Shown in pieces: positions 6,709-59,266 of a DNA stretch of 64,000 bases. Both the position numbers and the translations under genes were made by a program. Origin of the DNA: a virus (lineage: Duplodnaviria; Heunggongvirae; Uroviricota; Caudoviricetes); IMG/VR virus record IMGVR_UViG_3300046820_001896; one strand, given 5' to 3'. The notes beneath the pieces were generated by a model, which searched no databases, was not told the DNA's origin, and was given only the letters and a program-made list of their open reading frames with translations. Numbering within the stretch: the first letter of the stretch is position 1; each line of letters opens with the position of its first letter.

Positions 6709-7043
6709 TGGATCTACTAATTGGTATAGTAACAGGAGTTATATTAACTCTTATTGTGTTAAATATTCTTGCTAAAGCTGTTGATGAAATTAGAAATAAA
6801 CAACTCGACAAGAAACTAGAAGAAGGGTTACAAAAGCTTAGAGAAGTTGTAATTCCTAGTCGCATCGAAGTAGTCAATGGCATGTTGTTTTTGTACAACA
6901 AAGAAAATGGCGAATTCATAGCACAAGGTAAAAACTTCATTGAGTTAAACGATAATGCAAAAGCTCGTTATCCTGAGAAACTATTTAATGTACCTCAAAA
7001 CGAGATTGATGCAGTAACTAAAGGAATATCAATAAAGGTATGA
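6708..7043 (+). CDS. N-terminally membrane-anchored protein (111 aa)
   Basis: In-frame ATG at 6708 (TAATG overlap) gives MDLLIGIVTGVILTLIVLNIL. The longer ORF-track start at 6642 overlaps the upstream gene. Confidence 0.55.
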   Translation: MDLLIGIVTGVILTLIVLNILAKAVDEIRNKQLDKKLEEGLQKLREVVIPSRIEVVNGMLFLYNKENGEFIAQGKNFIELNDNAKARYPEKLFNVPQNEIDAVTKGISIKV

Positions 7044-7315
7044 TTAACGATAATAAATTTTATACGATAGTTGTAGCTATTACTATTTTACTTGGTGGAT
7101 GCATTGCATGGGGAATTATTTCAAGTAATAATCGTGCAGAAGCTGTTAAGTTGGCTTTAGAAAAAGGTCAAAATCCATTATATGTTAAGTGTTCAATGAA
7201 TACTACAACAACAGAAGAGTGCCAATCTATGATTATGGCTATGTCACTCTCAGGTCAATTTAAGGACGCCTCAGCTCCTATTTCAGTCTCACCAGCAAGT
7301 TACCCTAAAAAGTAA
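7040..7315 (+). CDS. membrane-anchored protein (91 aa)
   Basis: ATGA overlap with the upstream gene. N-terminal TM segment FYTIVVAITILLGGCIAWGII. Confidence 0.55.
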   Translation: MINDNKFYTIVVAITILLGGCIAWGIISSNNRAEAVKLALEKGQNPLYVKCSMNTTTTEECQSMIMAMSLSGQFKDASAPISVSPASYPKK

Positions 7316-7323
7316 TATAAATA
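7316..7323 (+). promoter_or_regulatory. T4-type late promoter motif TATAAATA
   Basis: Exact TATAAATA 24 nt upstream of the PAAR gene ATG, followed by the hairpin cagatat...atatctg carrying the RBS in its loop. Confidence 0.5.
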
Positions 7324-7346
7324 CAGATATCTAAAAGGATATCTGT

Positions 7347-7673
7347 ATGCCAGGAATTGCTAGAGTTGGTGTTGACAAAGCCGGTGGAGTAGTCACCGGT
7401 AATTTAGCTCCCACAGTTTTCGTAAATGGTTCACCTATCGTAGTGATAGGTGCAACTATTGCAGGTCACGGACTTGCTCCTCACGCTTCTCCAACTATGG
7501 TTGAAGGAGCTGTTGACGTGTTTGCGAATGGTATAGGTATATGTAGAACTGGCGATTTGGCATCGTGCGGTCATGCTATTTCAGGTTCAGATAATGTATT
7601 AACAGGATTTTACCCAAATCCGGGACCTACACGATTTGGTATTTCGAAATTTGGTGTGGAGAAACAAGGATAA
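7347..7673 (+). CDS. PAAR-domain spike-tip protein
   Basis: Gly/Val-rich beta-rich 108-aa protein with GHGLAPHASP and TGDLASCGHAISG, typical of PAAR proteins (T4 gp5.4 class). Confidence 0.7.
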   Translation: MPGIARVGVDKAGGVVTGNLAPTVFVNGSPIVVIGATIAGHGLAPHASPTMVEGAVDVFANGIGICRTGDLASCGHAISGSDNVLTGFYPNPGPTRFGISKFGVEKQG

Positions 7674-7674
7674 T

Positions 7675-8094
7675 ATGGCATTAAAATATGCAGATAACGT
7701 TGGATCACAATTATTTGATCCTATTGGAGAAACAGATACTTTTGTAGTAGTAGAATCTGTTACATCATTTCCAGCAAATATATCACCAACTGATTTTGCT
7801 GTAGCAACTATTGCTAACGATGATAATAGTTTAACAGAATCGATTAAAATTACTTTTATTGATCGTCCTACTAGAACATTGACAATAGAACGAGGATACG
7901 ATGATTCGACACCGCGCAATTGGCCAAAAGGATCTAAATTAGAAATTCGTATTTCATCTGGTTTTTTCAGAGCATTTGAAGAACAGGTAAATACATATAC
8001 CGACGATGCAATTTCTGCATTAGAAACTTCATCGAATACAACAACAGAAGCTAAATCTAAAGCAGCATTTGCAGTTGCTTTTGTATTAAGCTAA
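7675..8094 (+). CDS. hypothetical (structural?) protein (139 aa)
   Basis: In-frame ATG at 7675, just after the PAAR stop. The ORF-track start at 7636 overlaps the PAAR gene. Confidence 0.6.
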   Translation: MALKYADNVGSQLFDPIGETDTFVVVESVTSFPANISPTDFAVATIANDDNSLTESIKITFIDRPTRTLTIERGYDDSTPRNWPKGSKLEIRISSGFFRAFEEQVNTYTDDAISALETSSNTTTEAKSKAAFAVAFVLS

Positions 8095-8103
8095 GGAGAT
8101 TAA

Positions 8104-8733
8104 ATGTCTTTTGATTTTGAATTTACGCAAGAAAAACTTGCACACGTTATTCCTAACGCAAAGTATGGAGTAGAAACATGGCACAAAGAATTGGTAGAAC
8201 TTTTACCAGTTTTTGAAATTACTACAGTTGGTCGTGTTGCTGCATTTGTTGCGCAAACTGCTCATGAATCTGGTGGTTATACAGCACTAAAAGAAAACTT
8301 AAACTATAGTGCTGAAGGTTTGCATAAACTATGGCCAAATCGTTTCCCAACGGTTGAGTCAGCTATGCCTTATAATCGTAATCCGCAAGCTATCGCTAAT
8401 AAAGTTTACTCATCACGTATGGGTAACGGAGATGAACATAGCGGTGAAGGTTGGTTGTATTGCGGTCGTGGTCTACTACAATTGACTGGTAAAGCAAACT
8501 ATTCTGCATTCGCACAATACGCAGGTATGTCAGTAGAAGATGCACCTGAATATATCGAATCTCCACGCGGTGCTGTACACTCAGCATGTTGGTTCTGGTA
8601 TTCAAATGACTTGAATACATACGCAGATGCTGGTGATTTCACTGGTATGACTAAGCGTATCAATGGTGGTACAATCGGTTTAGACGATCGTATCAAACAT
8701 TATAATCACGCTGTAGAGATTTTCTCAGCGTAA
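8104..8733 (+). CDS. endolysin, GH19 / chitinase-class-I-like lysozyme
   Basis: RVAAFVAQTAHESGGYTALKENLNYSAEGL ... YCGRGLLQLTGKANY is the conserved core of phage GH19-type muramidases. RBS aaggag. Confidence 0.8.
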   Translation: MSFDFEFTQEKLAHVIPNAKYGVETWHKELVELLPVFEITTVGRVAAFVAQTAHESGGYTALKENLNYSAEGLHKLWPNRFPTVESAMPYNRNPQAIANKVYSSRMGNGDEHSGEGWLYCGRGLLQLTGKANYSAFAQYAGMSVEDAPEYIESPRGAVHSACWFWYSNDLNTYADAGDFTGMTKRINGGTIGLDDRIKHYNHAVEIFSA

Positions 8734-8768
8734 CATAATATACACACTTTAACATAAGGAATGTTACA

Positions 8769-51003: not shown

Positions 51004-52095
51004 ATGTCTGTCATAAACGTAAGTTTAGAAGATACATTCGAACAATGGAGAATTAAGACTAATCAGCTTGGTTCTACCATTGGTGATGCAGCTTCTCTTC
51101 AAACAACTTCAACAAATTTAGTTGCAGCAATCAATGAAGTTCGCAGTAATGCGGTCGTTGATGGTATCGTCACGACTTATGGCAATATATTTCAAATTAA
51201 TATTGATGAAGGCGATTCAGCTGAATTAATATTAGATTTGGACGGTAACTTAACATTAGCTGGTGATTTAATTGCTGACGTTACAGGTAACCTAAATGGT
51301 AATGCTAATACAGCAACGAAACTTCGTAATGGTCGTATTATCTCTATTACTGGTGATGCGACATGGGATGTAGTATTTGATGGATCTGCTAATGCAACCG
51401 GTCAATTGCAAATCAATCCAACAGGTGTTGTACCAGGAACATTTACTAAAGTTACTGTTGATGGAGATGGTAGAATATATGAAGGTTTTGATTTAGAAGA
51501 TACTGATGTTATTGCTGCTCTTGGATATACACCAGTAAGTGAAGATGCAGGTTATGATAATCCAAGTTGGCTGACTTCTATTAATGGTAATAAAATTAAT
51601 AGTGCAAGCAATATTACAATTGCTAACTTAACTGTTGGAAGTAGAGTATATCTTGGAAACGGTTCTGCAACTGCTCCAAGTATCGGGTTTTCTTCTGATG
51701 CTGCTCAAGATACTGGAATTTATTGGGGTGGAGATGGTTACACTTTCTTCACCAACAATGGTGTAAAAAGCGGTGAGATTCAACCTGGCGGAAACTTAGT
51801 GATGGTTGGTAACGTTGGTGGTTATTCAGATATTCGTCTTAAAAGGGATATTGAAACTATCAAAGGCGCTCTTGATATTGTTAATCAGTTAAGAGGCATC
51901 TATTATACGTCTATAGATACTAATGAACGTAGCGTTGGTGTTGTAGCTCAAGAAGTACAAAACAAAATTCCAGAATTAATTAGAGTTGGTGAAAATGGAA
52001 TGCTTTCAGTTTCATATGGAAACATGGGAGGTCTTCTTTTACAAGCTATCAATGAATTGACAGAGAGAGTAAAAGCTATCGAAGCTAAATTATGA
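51004..52095 (+). CDS. tail fibre/spike protein with C-terminal S74-type intramolecular chaperone domain
   Basis: C-terminal YSDIRLKRDIETIKGALDIVNQLRGIYYT...VGVVAQEVQNKIPELI...LSVSYGNMGGLLLQAINEL is the auto-cleaving chaperone module of endosialidase-type fibres. Confidence 0.8.
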   Translation: MSVINVSLEDTFEQWRIKTNQLGSTIGDAASLQTTSTNLVAAINEVRSNAVVDGIVTTYGNIFQINIDEGDSAELILDLDGNLTLAGDLIADVTGNLNGNANTATKLRNGRIISITGDATWDVVFDGSANATGQLQINPTGVVPGTFTKVTVDGDGRIYEGFDLEDTDVIAALGYTPVSEDAGYDNPSWLTSINGNKINSASNITIANLTVGSRVYLGNGSATAPSIGFSSDAAQDTGIYWGGDGYTFFTNNGVKSGEIQPGGNLVMVGNVGGYSDIRLKRDIETIKGALDIVNQLRGIYYTSIDTNERSVGVVAQEVQNKIPELIRVGENGMLSVSYGNMGGLLLQAINELTERVKAIEAKL

Positions 52096-52502
52096 CTTTA
52101 CAAACAACAGGATTAATCACTCTTAGAGATATAGCAAATGAGGCTGGGCAACCAACCTCATTTTCGCCTTCCCTATCGTGGGTTAAATCAATCGTAAAAC
52201 CCGCAAATAGACTTCCAACTAATGAGATTGACGATGTCTATGGATTTGCATATTTCCAAAAAAATTCTGAAGGCAACTGTGCTAACGGAAATTGTACAGC
52301 AAATTGTAATTGTGGAAATATTCAATGTACTAACTGCGCTATTACTGGAACAGTAAATTGTACAAACTGCGATACACAAGCTTGGTTACAACCAAATTGT
52401 AATTGTGCTTGCACATATAATTGTAACCAAACACAAATTAGCTATAACTGTGCGTGTGCTTGTGCATGCGCTTGTGCTTGTGCTGATGGTGGCGGTGGAT
52501 AA
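52092..52502 (+). CDS. Cys/Asn-rich protein (136 aa), putative substrate of the adjacent radical SAM enzyme
   Basis: ATGA-coupled to the fibre gene. Residues 1-62 have no Cys; residues 63-130 have 18 Cys, 11 of them as Asn-Cys. Ends NCACACACACACADGGGG. Confidence 0.75.
   Translation: MTLQTTGLITLRDIANEAGQPTSFSPSLSWVKSIVKPANRLPTNEIDDVYGFAYFQKNSEGNCANGNCTANCNCGNIQCTNCAITGTVNCTNCDTQAWLQPNCNCACTYNCNQTQISYNCACACACACACADGGGG
52449..52484 (+). repeat. (TGY-GCN)6 hexanucleotide coding repeat = (Cys-Ala)6
   Basis: tgt gcg tgt gct tgt gca tgc gct tgt gct tgt gct, read directly. Confidence 0.95.
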
Positions 52503-52523: not shown

Positions 52524-53957
52524 ATGATATTTGAAATTTTAGCAGAACGCAGTGAAAAAGATAGAAAAACATTTTTTTACGATAATATAAAAAATGTCTT
52601 ATCTTCAGAGGATGGTTTCATATTTAGTGTGGAAAATAAAAAAACACACAATCATATTGCTATACCATTTTCTAAAAAATCCCCATTGAAAAAATCAAAG
52701 AATATTACAAAACTAAAGATCCAAATGGGTCTTTCGTGTAACTATTCTTGCGACTATTGTTCTCAAAAGTTTGTTGGTCGTCCACCAGAAACCAATAAAA
52801 AAGACATTGATGACTTTATGAAAAAGTTAGAGGTGTTAGAATTCACAGAAGAACAAGGTTTATCAGTAGAATTTTGGGGAGGAGAGCCATTCGTTTATTG
52901 GAAAACTATGAAGCCTCTCGCAGAAGCTATTATGGAAAAGTTTTCTCATTGGAAAAATAGACCTAAGTTTTCAGTGATCACAAACGGTTCTATCTTAACA
53001 AGAGACATTTGTGCTTGGTTATATTACATGGGGTTTTATGTTTCAATTAGTCATGACGGTCCAGGGCAAAGTGTCAGAGGTCCTGATCCATTCGAAGACG
53101 AAGAAGCAAAAAAGATCGTATTAGAATTTTACAAAATAATGAAGCCACAAGGTAGAATTAGTTTTAATTCTATGCTTAATTCTAAAAATAAAAATCGGAA
53201 AGCAATTCACGAATGGTTTATCAATTTTACTGGAGATCCCGAAGTTCCTTTAGGAGAAGGTGCTTTAGTTGATGCATATGATTTAGATGGTATGAATAAT
53301 TCACTATCTACTAAAGAAGAACATTTTGAATTTAGAAGAAATTCTTTTAATGATATTAGATCGAATAATGGTTATATTGGATTTGGAACTATATTACAAA
53401 AAATAGATGGTTTTACTAATTCAGTGATGAATCAACTACCAGCTTCTGGATTAGGACAAAAGTGTGGAATGGATGATCAACATGTTTTAGCGATTGATAT
53501 GAAAGGCAATGTATTAACTTGTCAAAATGTATCTGCTGTTGAAACTGCAATGAATGGTGAATCTCATTTAGGCGGAAACTTAGATGACTACGATAATGTA
53601 GAGTTAAAATCTTCTACTCATTGGGCAAATAGAGAAGAGTGTTCAAAGTGCCCAGTTTTGCATCTATGCAAAGGTTCTTGTATGTTTTTAGATGGTCAGT
53701 TTTGGAAAACAACATGCGATAATGCTTATTCTGATAACATTTCACTTTTTGCTTTAGCATTCGAAAAGATGACATCAGGGTATATTCCATTGTACATAAA
53801 TAGTAATGAATTATCCCCAGAAAGAAAAGATATTTGGGGAACAATATTAAGCCATAAAGAAGAACCTACTAAAAAAATTATTCCTATTATTGCTGTAAGC
53901 GAAAAAACAGTATTAAATGATGTAGAAGTCTATACACAAGCAAAGGTAACACAATGA
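52524..53957 (+). CDS. radical SAM enzyme with C-terminal SPASM domain (peptide-maturase / anSME-like)
   Basis: C72-x3-C76-x2-C79 (SCNYSCDYC), GGEPF, VITNGS. SPASM signature C314-x13-G-x4-C333 and C373-x2-C376-x5-C382-x3-C386, then C398. RBS gagg. Confidence 0.88.
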   Translation: MIFEILAERSEKDRKTFFYDNIKNVLSSEDGFIFSVENKKTHNHIAIPFSKKSPLKKSKNITKLKIQMGLSCNYSCDYCSQKFVGRPPETNKKDIDDFMKKLEVLEFTEEQGLSVEFWGGEPFVYWKTMKPLAEAIMEKFSHWKNRPKFSVITNGSILTRDICAWLYYMGFYVSISHDGPGQSVRGPDPFEDEEAKKIVLEFYKIMKPQGRISFNSMLNSKNKNRKAIHEWFINFTGDPEVPLGEGALVDAYDLDGMNNSLSTKEEHFEFRRNSFNDIRSNNGYIGFGTILQKIDGFTNSVMNQLPASGLGQKCGMDDQHVLAIDMKGNVLTCQNVSAVETAMNGESHLGGNLDDYDNVELKSSTHWANREECSKCPVLHLCKGSCMFLDGQFWKTTCDNAYSDNISLFALAFEKMTSGYIPLYINSNELSPERKDIWGTILSHKEEPTKKIIPIIAVSEKTVLNDVEVYTQAKVTQ

Positions 53958-54274
53958 TATTAATTGATGTAGAAAGTCAAAATTTGCCTGAATTAATTCG
54001 TTTATATAAGACTATTCCTTATGTTGTCCAAATAAGATGCAATAAAATATTAAGACAGCATTATAAAGATTTTGTAGGAGAAGATGGTTTGTATGTTGCA
54101 TGTTTAGTGCAGGTGAAGTCAGGCGAAGACAAATATTTAAAGTTTGAAGATATCTTATCTAAAGAGGTGTGGGATGATCCCATGCAATATCAATATTGTC
54201 TGCAGAATATGAAATTAAAAATAGATGATTACATAGAAAATGATGTTCTTCCAAAAACACCATATAGCGAGTAA
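53954..54274 (+). CDS. small protein, paralogue A of a tandem pair (106 aa)
   Basis: ATGA overlap with the rSAM gene. Shares NL..L......V.Q.R....L.Q...D.VG.DG....CL and K..IDDYI..D..P with the next ORF. Confidence 0.65.
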   Translation: MILIDVESQNLPELIRLYKTIPYVVQIRCNKILRQHYKDFVGEDGLYVACLVQVKSGEDKYLKFEDILSKEVWDDPMQYQYCLQNMKLKIDDYIENDVLPKTPYSE

Positions 54275-54276
54275 TT

Positions 54277-54573
54277 ATGGAAACACCTAATTTATTAACT
54301 TTAGTAAATCGTCTTAGACAAACTGAACATGTTACGCAAGTTAGATATCACCAAGTTTTAAAACAACGTTTTAGAGATTTAGTTGGAGTAGATGGTATTT
54401 CAATTGTATGTTTACTTACTAATAAAGCTAATCCTGAAAATTTTGTGAAAATTGTAACTATTTTAGAAGCTTCAGTAATTGAGAATTTAGAACGACATGA
54501 TGCTATCATAGAAGATATTAAAACAAGAATCGATGATTATATCATCAGAGATATAAGGCCACCAAAATTCTAA
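54277..54573 (+). CDS. small protein, paralogue B of the tandem pair (98 aa)
   Basis: See paralogue A. 2-nt gap. Confidence 0.65.
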   Translation: METPNLLTLVNRLRQTEHVTQVRYHQVLKQRFRDLVGVDGISIVCLLTNKANPENFVKIVTILEASVIENLERHDAIIEDIKTRIDDYIIRDIRPPKF

Positions 54574-55307
54574 TGTTAACAGATCAAGAAATTAATGACT
54601 ATTACGATAGTCTTGTGCCAGTTATGCCAAGACCAGAAGATCGTGTCGTAGATATGTCATTTAAAAATACTAATACCAACATTCTAATATCTGCCGGTAG
54701 ATTATTAGCTGTTGCCAATTATTCTGCAAGCGTAAAAGCATTAGCAGAATTTAATAAATCTAATATTTTTACATTTCAATTAGTAGGAATGGAAGAACGT
54801 CCAAATTTATATTTTCAAAAAAATAAATGTTGGAGAATTCGTGTTACTGAAGATGGTAAAGCTTGGCAAGATTCGCCTAATATTGAATCAATCGAACAAT
54901 TATATGATTTTATTTTAATCTCTCAAAAAGCTGCAGTCTTAGATGTTATTCATCGTCGTTTAGATATGAATAGACGTAGAGAAATTAAAGCTGCACAAGG
55001 TCAAAATCACATCTATTTTGCAAAATATTTAGAAGCAAAAGAAATCCTTGAAAAAGGAATTACTGAAGATCCTATTTGTAAATATCCATTTGTTACTGGA
55101 TATGCTGATTTAGTCGGAATGGATATTGTAGAAGCATCTAAGCGCATTAAATTTAAGTATGAAACTCGTGCATCATTTTTAGCAGAAAATGAAACGCTTA
55201 GATTAAAATATACTGCATTCGTTAAACAGCAAACTACTCTGGAAGATTTAGGTGCTGTGTTAGAACAATTTAAAGCTGAAAGCACAAAGTACGGCGATTC
55301 ACTATGA
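54573..55307 (+). CDS. hypothetical protein of the cassette (244 aa)
   Basis: TAATG overlap upstream and ATGA overlap downstream. Confidence 0.65.
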   Translation: MLTDQEINDYYDSLVPVMPRPEDRVVDMSFKNTNTNILISAGRLLAVANYSASVKALAEFNKSNIFTFQLVGMEERPNLYFQKNKCWRIRVTEDGKAWQDSPNIESIEQLYDFILISQKAAVLDVIHRRLDMNRRREIKAAQGQNHIYFAKYLEAKEILEKGITEDPICKYPFVTGYADLVGMDIVEASKRIKFKYETRASFLAENETLRLKYTAFVKQQTTLEDLGAVLEQFKAESTKYGDSL

Positions 55308-56425
55308 GCACTATATTTTATAATAGTTATGATATCTTCGTAAATGAAGCATATCATGAAAAACGCAATCAAATTCCAGGTGGTCATGCATTTGGTGGTT
55401 ATTTTCAATTATTTTCTAGCAATATTACATCTATTGACAGAACGAATACATTTAGTATACCACTAAAGACTACTGTATTACCTCATCTTCAAATGCCAAA
55501 AATGAGAACATTCACTAAATCATTTAGTGATATTTGTGATGATAGAGCCATTGAATTGATGAATAAAGCTAAGACAGATAATCGTAAGATTGCGGTTATG
55601 TACAGCGGAGGAATTGATTCTACTGTTATTCTGTGTGCTTTATTAAAGAACTGCACAGAACAAGATTTAAAAAACCATGTAATTGTGCTTTTGACAGATC
55701 ATAGTATTTTAGAAAATCCTAATTTTTATAATGACTATATTATCAAAAAGTTTGAATGTGTTTCAAGTTATAGATTTCCATATTTCCTAGGGAATGATGA
55801 TTACATCGTAATTTCTGGTGAAAATGCAGATCAATTGTTTGGTTCACAAGTAGTTGCTAAATTTATTGCATATCGTTCGTTTGATTATTTGTTTACTCCA
55901 TTAGATCAAGCTGCTGGGGATATCATTGATTGGATGACTATGAAATTGCAAGATGAATATAAAAAATATGCGCCTTATTATTGGCAAATGTTTAGACATC
56001 TTTGCAATGCTGCTCCGATTCCTATTGATAACGTATATAAATTTTTCTGGTGGATTAACTTTACAAACAAATGGCAATCAGTATATGTTCGTATTTTACC
56101 ATACGCTAAAAATAGAAGTAATATTAAATTAGAAGATAATTACACTACGTTTTTCTGCCCGCAAGATTTCCAATTGTGGTCATTAAATAATCCAGATAAT
56201 CTAGTAAAAGAATCTTTAGATAATGTAAAATATATCGCAAAAGATTATATTTTAGATTTTAATGGAGATCAATCTTACTATAAAAAACCTAAGATTGGTA
56301 GCTTAACTAATATTGTGAAGCAAAAAGAAATTGTTATGTTATTAAATGATGATATGACATTTACAAATGACTACCCAGATAGTCAACACTGGAATGAAAC
56401 AAACACTTTTTCGGAGATGATGTAA
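55304..56425 (+). CDS. PP-loop ATP pyrophosphatase, asparagine synthetase B synthetase-domain-like (lasso-cyclase-like)
   Basis: IAVMYSGGIDST (SGGxDS, residues 101-106) and ISGENADQLFG (AsnB GEGADELFGG). No N-terminal glutaminase Cys. Confidence 0.7.
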   Translation: MSTIFYNSYDIFVNEAYHEKRNQIPGGHAFGGYFQLFSSNITSIDRTNTFSIPLKTTVLPHLQMPKMRTFTKSFSDICDDRAIELMNKAKTDNRKIAVMYSGGIDSTVILCALLKNCTEQDLKNHVIVLLTDHSILENPNFYNDYIIKKFECVSSYRFPYFLGNDDYIVISGENADQLFGSQVVAKFIAYRSFDYLFTPLDQAAGDIIDWMTMKLQDEYKKYAPYYWQMFRHLCNAAPIPIDNVYKFFWWINFTNKWQSVYVRILPYAKNRSNIKLEDNYTTFFCPQDFQLWSLNNPDNLVKESLDNVKYIAKDYILDFNGDQSYYKKPKIGSLTNIVKQKEIVMLLNDDMTFTNDYPDSQHWNETNTFSEMM

Positions 56426-57069
56426 TGATTATTGAAAACAAGATTGATGTGCTAGATACGATGTATCCTTGTTATGCTGAAAAAGTAGTAAATGCATTAT
56501 ATCACTCTAAAGCATATTGTACATTATATGGATATATTATGTCAGGAGAAGTTACATTTCCTAATGGAAGTGTAGCTGTAGAAGGGCAATATTTTTGTTA
56601 TTGGACTGGTGAAGGTGATTCTATTAGAACTACTGGTGAAGTTTACATATTCACACGCTTTGGATTCAAAGGACAAAACACCATTGGTGGTCCAATTGAA
56701 GAAAGCGGTCGTTTAGTTTATATAGATTCTTGTTCTGATAGTTTATTGGTGTATCCTCCTAGAATGGGAGATCCATCTTTAAACTTATTACAATTTCCTT
56801 CTGCTGTCAAACAATCGTATCATATCCATCCGAGCATTAGACTTGGAGTAGTTGTAAAAGGTAAAGGATATGCTTGTATCAAAAAAGCATATGAAGAAGA
56901 ACAAATTGAATTAAAGCCAGGTGTTATGTTCTGTATAGAAGAAAGAGAACAACATCGTTTTATGACAACATACGATGAAATGACAGTTATAGCATTCCAT
57001 CCAGACGGTGATTGGGGTCCAACTGATCATAATCACACAATGTTAAACAGAACATATATTACGAAATAA
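56425..57069 (+). CDS. cupin-fold protein (tentative)
   Basis: SYHIHPSIRLGVVVKGKG and KPGVMFCIEEREQHRF resemble the two cupin motifs. TAATG overlap. Confidence 0.45.
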   Translation: MIIENKIDVLDTMYPCYAEKVVNALYHSKAYCTLYGYIMSGEVTFPNGSVAVEGQYFCYWTGEGDSIRTTGEVYIFTRFGFKGQNTIGGPIEESGRLVYIDSCSDSLLVYPPRMGDPSLNLLQFPSAVKQSYHIHPSIRLGVVVKGKGYACIKKAYEEEQIELKPGVMFCIEEREQHRFMTTYDEMTVIAFHPDGDWGPTDHNHTMLNRTYITK

Positions 57070-57441: not shown

Positions 57442-58073
57442 TGTCTTTACGCAACAAAGGTAAAGCTGGTTATATTGGATACGACCGTGTTAGTAGTCCT
57501 GATGTTGGAAGCGGTATATGGAACTTAAACCAACATCACACAGCTGTATCTGATTATAGTTGGGCTGGTCAGTCTGTATACACAAACTATGATGGAAATT
57601 TAAATGGTTTTACTGTTAGCGGAGCTACTACTAGCAGTAATGCCATATATGTTCCAGGAAATAGTTATGCATATAGAGATATGATATCTCCGTTCACTAG
57701 TTTATTATTTAAAACAATGACTTTTGAAGTTTATATTAGCGGCGGAGTATGTGGTGTATTAATTGGAAGTTCTACTGCCGGTAGAGGACCTTTATTAAAA
57801 CTAGATGCACGTGGCGGCAGTAATTATAGCGGTATGATGTTCCAAACTTCTTGGACTGTTAGAGGTGATCCTCCAGTTACCGGTGTGCAATTACCAGCGA
57901 ATTCATGGGTACCTGTGCGACTAGAAGTTAATAATGCGATGCGTATTGACTGGTCTGCAAATAATAGGTATGATCGTCAACCTATTCTTTTATCTGGTCC
58001 ATTTATTACATTCCTTGGATTAGGCGGCGGCGGTTATTTTAGAAATATTAGAGTTTATAATGGTGTATCATAA
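57441..58073 (+). CDS. structural protein with GIWNLNQ N-terminal motif (210 aa)
   Basis: TAATG overlap. GSGIWNLNQHH shared with GIWHLKQVG of the next ORF. Confidence 0.6.
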   Translation: MSLRNKGKAGYIGYDRVSSPDVGSGIWNLNQHHTAVSDYSWAGQSVYTNYDGNLNGFTVSGATTSSNAIYVPGNSYAYRDMISPFTSLLFKTMTFEVYISGGVCGVLIGSSTAGRGPLLKLDARGGSNYSGMMFQTSWTVRGDPPVTGVQLPANSWVPVRLEVNNAMRIDWSANNRYDRQPILLSGPFITFLGLGGGGYFRNIRVYNGVS

Positions 58074-59266
58074 TGTATAACGGCGGAATATTTGGTAAAA
58101 AAAATTATCCAAACGTTTTTAATGCTAATGGTATATGGCATTTAAAACAAGTTGGGGATTTTATACATCGTGGTGAATGGTATTTTGCAAGAAGCGCAAC
58201 TGTTAATGCTACTTCATTTTTAGAAGGTGATACTATCACTGTTACAATTAATGCTCCAAGCTTACCAGACGGTACAAAACTATATTGGACTATTAATACT
58301 GTTTCAGGAACTATTCGTACAGATGATTTCGATAATCGTATTTTGAATGGTCCGCTTTCTATTATTAATGGAAAAGATACGACTAGTAGAAAATTAGAAA
58401 CAAGTAAACAAGGAGATGGTAATAGATCATTTACTATTGCTATTAGAACTGAATCTGTAGAAGGTCCAATTATTGCAACTACTCCTGTTTTAACACTAGA
58501 CGACGTAGCTCGTGGCGGTAATGCCATTTTTGATAGAGGTGGATATCGATATCATAAATTTACTTCTTCTGGTAATTTCCTTTGTAATCGTTCTCTCGGT
58601 TTAACTGTATTTGCAGTTGGCGGAGGCGGTGGCGGTGGCGGTAATGGTGGAGGTGGCGGCGGTGGCGGAGGTATCGTATATACAAATATCTCTGTTGGAG
58701 CTGGAACTTATTTTATTGGAATAGGTGGAGGAGGAAGCGCAGCTCCTAATGGTAGTGTACACGGAGGAAACGGTGGAGCTACCACATTTCAAGGATTTAT
58801 AACTGCTAATGGCGGTGGCGGTGGTGGCTCTCGAGACACAGATCGTAACGGTTATTATGGTGGTTCAGGTGGTGGTGGATCTAGTAATGGTGGAGGAGGT
58901 GGCGGTACTCCTGGCCAAGGTAATAATGGTGGTAATGGTATTATTGCTGGTTCTGGTGAAGTCCAATCTACTGGCGGTGGTGGCGGTGGATATGGCGGTG
59001 GTGGACAAAACGGTGCTGCTAAAGATGCTGGTAATGGTGGACCAGGAGGTGCATTTGATCCAACTGCCGACGGTACTGCAGAATATTATTCTGGCGGCGG
59101 AGGTGGAGGTAGAACTGTTTTCGGTACTACTGGTTCAAATGGTCAAGGGCAAGGTGTCAATAGAGGTGGAGGAGGTAAAGGCGGTTCTGGAGGATCGACT
59201 TCATTTGCTGCTCAAGCTGGAGACACAGGCTATTGTGTAATTCGTTATTTGATTCCGAGTAATTAA
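58073..59266 (+). CDS. glycine-rich domain protein (397 aa)
   Basis: N-terminal GIWHLKQ motif. C-terminal half with G7NG9 and repeated GGGGxG/NGG tracts interrupted by short beta-like segments (IVYTNISVGAGTYFIGIGGGG). Confidence 0.7.
   Translation: MYNGGIFGKKNYPNVFNANGIWHLKQVGDFIHRGEWYFARSATVNATSFLEGDTITVTINAPSLPDGTKLYWTINTVSGTIRTDDFDNRILNGPLSIINGKDTTSRKLETSKQGDGNRSFTIAIRTESVEGPIIATTPVLTLDDVARGGNAIFDRGGYRYHKFTSSGNFLCNRSLGLTVFAVGGGGGGGGNGGGGGGGGGIVYTNISVGAGTYFIGIGGGGSAAPNGSVHGGNGGATTFQGFITANGGGGGGSRDTDRNGYYGGSGGGGSSNGGGGGGTPGQGNNGGNGIIAGSGEVQSTGGGGGGYGGGGQNGAAKDAGNGGPGGAFDPTADGTAEYYSGGGGGGRTVFGTTGSNGQGQGVNRGGGGKGGSGGSTSFAAQAGDTGYCVIRYLIPSN
58619..58672 (+). repeat. (GGN)18 low-complexity coding repeat
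   Basis: ggc gga ggc ggt ggc ggt ggc ggt aat ggt gga ggt ggc ggc ggt ggc gga ggt. Confidence 0.9.

Follow-up and report, generated by a model that had tools for sequence, protein, structure and literature searches.

The proteins gp38 and gp57A of phage T4 and the Tfa proteins of lambda and Mu are small, fast-evolving, noncatalytic members of tail-fiber modules whose target is the fiber's C-terminal tip, which depends on such assembly chaperones to fold or trimerize. The class I chaperones of type III secretion (the SycN/YscB heterodimer, ExsC, and Spa15), whose CesT/SycE-like fold runs α-β-β-β-α-β-β-α, and CsgE are likewise among the known systems closest to the genes described here. In peptide modification, the radical S-adenosylmethionine (rSAM) maturases QhpD, PapB, CcpM, and SCIFF join Cys to a carbon of Asp, Asn, Glu, or Thr in Cys-rich substrates. 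A recognition element (RRE) of ribosomally synthesized and posttranslationally modified peptides (RiPPs) is defined as a winged helix-turn-helix whose elements follow the strict N-to-C order βββ-ααα (PMC12710340). Such elements bind the leader or recognition sequence of a precursor as an additional β-strand. We analyzed a 64,000-nucleotide stretch of DNA from a tailed virus (Caudoviricetes; IMG/VR record IMGVR_UViG_3300046820_001896), the whole of which is called the window below, and in it two adjacent open reading frames (ORFs), A and B, that lie directly downstream of genes for a Cys/Asn-rich protein and an rSAM enzyme. A and B are diverged copies of a previously undescribed α/β domain of about 100 amino acids, here called the S domain, which constitutes a new and rare family.

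A (53954..54274, plus strand; 106 amino acids, isoelectric point [pI] 4.85) and B (54277..54573, plus strand; 98 amino acids, pI 6.8) had been picked out in a sequence-only reading as tandem duplicates, colinear at about 30% identity by eye and placed directly after the rSAM gene. Both ORFs, and the peptide strings quoted from them, are present at these positions, and BLASTP bore out the alignment: 29 of 95 residues are identical (31%; 61% positives), without gaps and over essentially the full length, with an E value of 9e-21. The similarity is far beyond chance. The ATG of A overlaps the stop codon of the rSAM gene in the sequence ATGA (53954-53957), so that A starts 4 nucleotides inside the end of that gene; B starts 2 nucleotides past the stop of A, and its own stop codon overlaps the start codon of the gene that follows. 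The orthologs of A and B keep their order in the related contigs L003, L004, L010, and L011, and with the metagenomic contig L010 as the reference, the ratio of nonsynonymous to synonymous substitution rates (dN/dS) came to 0.065 in A and to 0.099 in B, similar to the values of 0.02 to 0.06 for neighboring genes. On this sequence evidence, A and B are real genes under purifying selection. A consensus scan of 50.5 to 59.5 kb found no promoter- or terminator-like sites above shuffled expectation, and the two genes probably belong to one long late transcript.

When 5.8 billion clusters were searched by word index, only 3 to 4 close homologs each were found for A and B, and an exhaustive hidden Markov model (HMM) search of 1.84 billion representatives returned 39 clusters at E ≤ 1e-3, all of them from phages or metagenome contigs. 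The members are 100 to 143 amino acids long and share a near-invariant "QVR," which falls in the first of the long strands (V24, V27, and R28), together with G42 and Y93. A and B had no match in Pfam, PHROGs, or NCBIfam. An alignment of 33 diverse members was used for profile comparisons with Pfam, PHROG, and PDB; these members fell into no consistent Pfam or PHROG family, with one marginal match to an unannotated PHROG, and the family profile found nothing among PDB sequences. Among 50,697 records of cultured phages, none carried the cassette in a DNA search, and none encoded A, B, the two-domain form of S described below, or the Cys-rich protein in a tblastn search; cultured-phage relatives existed only for the rSAM enzyme (RSP15, JWF, and Achromobacter phage 2-1, at 42 to 45% identity).

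Related loci were located by using alignments of the rSAM enzyme and of a PP-loop protein encoded farther downstream as queries. The rSAM alignment found a relative in at least 572 IMG/VR stretches, of which the best 80 (59 to 95% identity) were kept; the locus counts given here pool these 80 with loci fetched earlier, without dereplication, with gene families tabulated by HMMs. The A-type and B-type domains also occur as natural fusions, in three representatives (P0008 to P0010, 214 to 222 amino acids) and in an ORF of L012. In 27 loci, moreover, the rSAM gene is directly followed by a gene for a protein of 207 to 239 amino acids that the S-domain HMM matched partially or not at all, and hhalign identified this protein as two divergent S domains in tandem (probability of 96.8% and E value of 2e-10 for the C-terminal half; 63.5% and 7e-5 for the N-terminal half). 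We refer to this divergent two-domain protein as T. The 43 S-bearing loci comprise 28 with one two-domain gene, 7 with two genes (the window included), and 8 with a single gene, and two S domains are thus present in 35 of them. Most single-copy S proteins scored higher with the B-type than with the A-type HMM, which suggests that A is the derived copy. With a median pI of 5.1, the family is acidic, and no conserved polar residue is common to S and T; a conserved Cys and a cofactor motif are also lacking, and on this ground the idea that A and B are redox partners was rejected. S diverges much faster than every neighbor, with identities of 59 to 65% where those of the rSAM enzyme are 81% and of 25 to 32% where those of the enzyme are 59 to 64%.

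AlphaFold2, run on the A/B alignment, gave a confident model of A with a predicted local distance difference test score of 82.1 and a predicted template modeling score (pTM) of 0.75. The model has helices at residues 11 to 18, 35 to 41, 70 to 73, and 76 to 96 and strands at residues 24 to 32, 45 to 53, and 61 to 69, in the order α-β-α-β-β-α-α. B showed the same order in a single-chain model of A plus B, whose alignment contained the natural fusions; this model reproduced both domains, and its pTM of 0.55 allows no A-B interface to be claimed. Neither the two-layer β-α-β-β-β-α sandwich of the HPF/YfiA ribosome hibernation fold nor membership in that family was found for S.

The sequence-only reading had likened A and B to stand-alone PqqD-like RREs. 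The part of this comparison that concerns size and position stands. A PqqD-like RRE (PF05402; PqqD acting with PqqE) is, like S, a presumably noncatalytic protein of about 90 to 100 amino acids beside a SPASM-type rSAM enzyme that lacks a fused recognition domain, and S occupies the place expected of an RRE: in the window and nearly everywhere else that S occurs, it comes next after the gene for the rSAM/SPASM enzyme, a modifying enzyme of the RiPP type. The core of the phage enzyme starts at about residue 51 to 56, leaving some 50 to 55 preceding residues, compared with about 90 to 98 in CteB and in the structure 8vpo. We take the extra N-terminal stretch of CteB to be its fused RRE, and the phage enzyme would therefore not have room for a full one. 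The identification with PqqD itself did not survive. PF05402 had no match in A, in B, or in the 33 family members at E ≤ 1, and hhalign gave a probability of 0.1% for the S-family profile against PqqD of Klebsiella pneumoniae, a sequence confirmed as PF05402 (59 bits, against a cutoff of 23.4). The predicted order of elements is not βββ-ααα, and no RRE was among the listed hits of a fold search, in which resemblance to solved structures of PqqD and of the RRE domains of LynD, NisB, CteB, and SuiB was looked for. S thus differs from PqqD-like RREs in sequence and profile, in the order of its secondary structure, and in occurring mostly as paired domains; unlike an RRE, it is dispensable in closely related rSAM systems. 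In kind, S falls into a known category, the accessory proteins of rSAM maturation cassettes, but its family, its fold, and the logic of its distribution are new and unlike those of RREs.

The enzyme that precedes A (52524..53957, plus strand; 477 amino acids) is a radical-SAM/SPASM maturase by its matches to Pfam Radical_SAM and phrog_1802 (E value of 1e-63), and its SPASM domain lies above the NCBIfam cutoff (1e-8). Its best NCBIfam matches were the PapB ranthipeptide maturase (1e-20), QhpD (5e-19), and CcpM (3e-17), with the SCIFF maturase also matched, all well below the family cutoffs; CteB and anSME are its relatives in the PDB. The phage enzyme is closest to the thioether systems of the QhpD/QhpC and PapB/CteB types, where its best family matches lie, but it falls far below their cutoffs, and its substrate would be a structural protein of a fiber tip rather than a secreted peptide or an enzyme subunit. 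We know of no counterpart of the S domain in those systems. The presumed substrate of the enzyme, and presumed client of A and B, is the Cys/Asn-rich protein encoded upstream (52092..52502, plus strand; 136 amino acids with 18 Cys and 18 Asn and the C-terminal sequence DGGGG), in which the enzyme probably installs thioether-type cross-links. The Cys-rich protein was paired with the rSAM enzyme in nearly all of the 80 IMG/VR loci; its HMM missed about six, several of them truncated. The near-invariant pair is common in viral metagenomes, as the number of IMG/VR stretches given above indicates, and occurs in two gene orders. Literature searches found no description of the rSAM/Cys-rich/S cassette or of the rSAM/Cys-rich pair; a single cyanophage paper mentions an rSAM maturase and treats it as an antibiotic synthesis gene.

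The Cys-rich module is elsewhere followed by autoprocessing or chaperone modules, which identifies it as the C-terminal tip of a fiber. It precedes a Peptidase_S74 domain in L073 (5693-6382) and, judging by the length of the extension, probably also in L042 and L062 to L064, and in gp028 of phage JWF (L002, 3799-5250) the stretch NCNCDCNCNCSC lies ahead of a Hint domain. The gene immediately upstream of the Cys-rich protein in the window (51004..52095, plus strand) encodes a tail-fiber protein with a C-terminal Peptidase_S74 intramolecular chaperone (PF13884, E value of 3e-11) and matches to many PHROG tail-fiber families.

In every genomic context recovered for S-family members, S came next after a gene for a homologous rSAM enzyme, with a gene for a homologous Cys-rich protein ahead of the latter. 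Two architectures could be distinguished among the related loci. In the first, that of the window, the gene for a Cys-rich protein of about 135 amino acids that ends at the Cys-rich region precedes the rSAM gene, and S or T follows the latter directly in 40 of 48 loci, with two of the remaining eight truncated. In the second, the rSAM gene comes first, and the Cys-rich protein carries a C-terminal extension of 154 to 171 amino acids ending in a hydrophobic, transmembrane-like segment (for example, L050, 6483-7385). S or T was found in none of the 33 loci of this second kind, and in 31 of them the next gene encodes "U," a protein of about 105 to 139 amino acids that is unrelated to S and has an EF-hand-like motif. 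L073 is the only locus with the order rSAM, Cys-rich protein, S; there a two-domain S or T protein follows, and the extension is the Peptidase_S74 domain, of about 95 amino acids. Enzymes 42 to 67% identical to that of the window also occur without S. Inspection of the neighborhoods in cultured phages showed an rSAM enzyme and a Cys-rich fiber end without S in JWF and an rSAM enzyme with a short NCQCGN ending of a nearby fiber gene, again without S, in RSP15. S was absent from all 69 rSAM loci in bacterial genomes, among them that of Paraburkholderia sp. BCC1886 (L115; NZ_CAAJGK010000011.1, 1455-8742), which encodes, in the gene order of the window, a fiber protein with Peptidase_S74, a Cys-rich protein ending in GDGDGG, and an rSAM enzyme 56% identical to that of the window. 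Loci with S and loci lacking it share one and the same conserved N-terminal region in their Cys-rich proteins. No hidden S-like domain was found in the 300-amino-acid Cys-rich proteins, in U, in the proteins of about 320 amino acids of S-less loci, or in the 244-amino-acid protein (p244) encoded downstream of B. S is not needed by the core rSAM/Cys-rich system.

We tentatively propose that A and B form a heterodimeric, noncatalytic chaperone or adaptor of the neighboring Cys/Asn-rich fiber-tip protein, a reading that we favor while holding it with somewhat less than even confidence. In this scheme, A and B would pair with each other, and the heterodimer would bind the free C-terminal Cys-rich segment and hold or cap it, both during its modification by the rSAM/SPASM enzyme, probably with cross-links of the thioether type, and during assembly of the Cys-rich protein onto the tail. 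We infer that A and B act as a chaperone or adaptor and have neither a catalytic nor a structural role. A noncatalytic binding unit of two domains is suggested by the lack of any conserved polar residue, Cys, or cofactor motif, by the acidity of the family, by its fast divergence under purifying selection, and by the natural fusions. As to the client, the presence of rSAM enzymes 59 to 67% identical to that of the window in lineages without S favors the Cys-rich C terminus over the enzyme, and so does the fact that S tracks the architecture of this C terminus, never occurring together with the extension of about 160 amino acids and U and usually occurring where the substrate stops at the Cys-rich region.

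S resembles the tail-fiber chaperones (gp38/gp57A, Tfa, and Peptidase_S74) in being small and fast evolving, in lying in a fiber module, and in being absent when the client itself carries a long extension at its C terminus. It differs from them in lacking homology and in following the rSAM gene rather than the fiber gene, and it coexists with Peptidase_S74 in L073 and probably in the four other loci named above. A and B fall into none of the known chaperone families of Pfam or PHROG, and they do not lie directly downstream of the client fiber gene, the rSAM gene intervening in 40 loci as it does in the window.

The alternative that survives best, which we nevertheless consider unlikely, is that A and B are a substrate-presenting subunit docked on the rSAM enzyme, an analog of the RRE with another fold that delivers either the conserved N-terminal region of the substrate or its Cys-rich core to the active site. 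Such a role would fit the position of S directly after the rSAM gene in almost all loci, the overlap of the two genes in the window, and the short stretch ahead of the core of the phage enzyme, and there is precedent for it in the leader-binding domains other than RREs that are known in RiPP pathways (PMC12710340). It is difficult to reconcile, however, with the rSAM enzymes 59 to 67% identical to that of the window, most of them aligned over residues 1 to 475, that stand beside very similar Cys-rich domains without S or T, in the 33 loci of the second architecture and in 6 of the first that are not truncated. More distant enzymes (42 to 56%) also do without S in the Paraburkholderia locus, JWF, and RSP15, and the N-terminal region that such a subunit might deliver is identical in character whether S is present or not.

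It is less probable still that A and B are components of the virion, a small tip or adaptor pair on the Cys-rich fiber end resembling the gp38 adhesins of T2-type phages and perhaps involved in host recognition. Their genes do lie in a baseplate and tail-fiber module and diverge faster than all their neighbors. In some S-less loci, the equivalent position is taken by a gene for a protein of about 310 to 330 amino acids that has a weak, subthreshold match to Invasin domain 3 (Ig-like) and could be structural. Against this, A and B show no fiber-like repeats and no similarity to PHROG structural families, and their low dN/dS values give no sign of diversifying selection.

Downstream of B, and likewise after S in other S-bearing cassettes that contain them, are genes for p244 (54573..55307, plus strand; no assigned function), for a PP-loop (SGGIDS) ATP-pyrophosphatase-like protein of 373 amino acids (55304..56425, plus strand; weakly similar to PP-loop entries of Pfam, NCBIfam, and PDB, the PDB entry being LarE), and for a cupin of 214 amino acids (56425..57069, plus strand; Cupin_2, E value of 4e-6). 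That A and B belong functionally with this trio instead of with the rSAM enzyme is very improbable. The window and its nearest relatives do pack all these genes without gaps, and among S-bearing loci, separate single-domain S genes, whether one or two, occur only where the trio is present. The trio occurs widely without S, however, and is an independent module. It is entirely missing from 27 S-bearing loci, all of which have the two-domain S protein, and this, together with the presence of S or T after the rSAM gene in 40 of 48 loci of the first architecture, links S to the rSAM/Cys-rich pair and not to the trio. Conversely, the PP-loop and cupin genes, with or without a gene for about 200 to 244 amino acids between them, occur in some 20 T4-like phage contigs that have neither the rSAM gene nor S; in L017, L020, and L028, whose neighbors were inspected, they lie between predicted genes for a gp46-like recombination ATPase and a peptide deformylase. 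The full trio occurs without the rSAM gene and without S in L016, and L014 and L015 have the rSAM gene and the trio without S. No relatedness of p244 to S or T was found, nor is p244 a cryptic tandem of S domains. The p244 gene is itself duplicated in tandem in L012 (5584-6998), where the two S domains are fused in one gene, and in L038, where S is encoded by two genes. The weakest reading, that A and B are genuine PqqD-like RREs, had their size of about 100 amino acids and their position beside a SPASM rSAM enzyme in its favor and is ruled out, to the extent that we give it next to no credence, by the profile comparison and the predicted order of the fold.

The region of the window in which these genes lie is the baseplate and tail-fiber module of a myovirus, with a gp5-like hub/lysozyme and baseplate wedge proteins; it also encodes a 2,118-amino-acid protein of phrog_358, whose function is unannotated. 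Farther downstream (58073-59266) is a gene for a 397-amino-acid protein of phrog_2295 with long poly-Gly runs, and a similar Gly-rich insert separates the conserved N-terminal region of the substrate protein from its Cys-rich C terminus in L006 (587-1693) and L015. Genes resembling 2OG-FeII_Oxy_5 (PF13759) lie within 5 kb of the rSAM gene in 28 of the 43 loci with S or T and in 26 of the 31 loci with U (for example, L039, 7130-8186; L042, 7103-7729; and L008, 4982-5536), with none in the window. Of the 69 bacterial-genome loci (L115 to L183), 17 have such a gene no farther than 4 kb from the rSAM gene, usually just upstream of it. They could encode a further modifying enzyme or could be common cargo of aquatic phages. 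Homologs of the rSAM enzyme with 31 to 49% identity are frequent in assemblies of freshwater Burkholderiales (Limnohabitans and Polaromonas) and Rhodospirillales (L116 to L170), where they presumably sit in prophages or tailocins; the bacterial homologs give a hint as to which hosts the phage clade infects. The Paraburkholderia locus, which also encodes an Ala/Ser-rich fiber protein of 1,074 amino acids, comes from the genome of a cultured bacterium and offers a tractable system with which the core chemistry can be compared. One 6.5-kb contig with the Cys-rich/rSAM/two-domain S cassette (L045; IMGVR_UViG_GVMAG-M-3300027708-63_000001) is labeled as part of a giant-virus metagenome-assembled genome, which is probably a binning artifact.

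The definition of the S domain fills an annotation gap that extends over 39 clusters and further two-domain relatives in phage metagenomes, and it shows that annotating small proteins beside rSAM maturases as RREs by size and position alone is not warranted. The surrounding system, an rSAM enzyme with a Cys/Asn-rich fiber-tip protein, is a more striking feature than S itself. The fusions of S domains and the mutually exclusive alternatives to them, the C-terminal extension with U, offer a way into the question of how such fiber tips are matured. A broader proposal, which we regard as doubtful, is that the S pair represents a new, non-RRE class of client-binding modules for protein-modifying rSAM enzymes, in a widespread and previously undescribed phage system (at least 572 IMG/VR stretches) that installs RiPP-like cross-links in a protein of the virion fiber tip. 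If this were true, A and B would be the first subunit dedicated to recognition or chaperoning in the rSAM maturation of a structural virus protein, and if they do bind the fiber-tip protein, they would provide a handle on an apparently common phage system in which RiPP-style chemistry is applied to a part of the virion.

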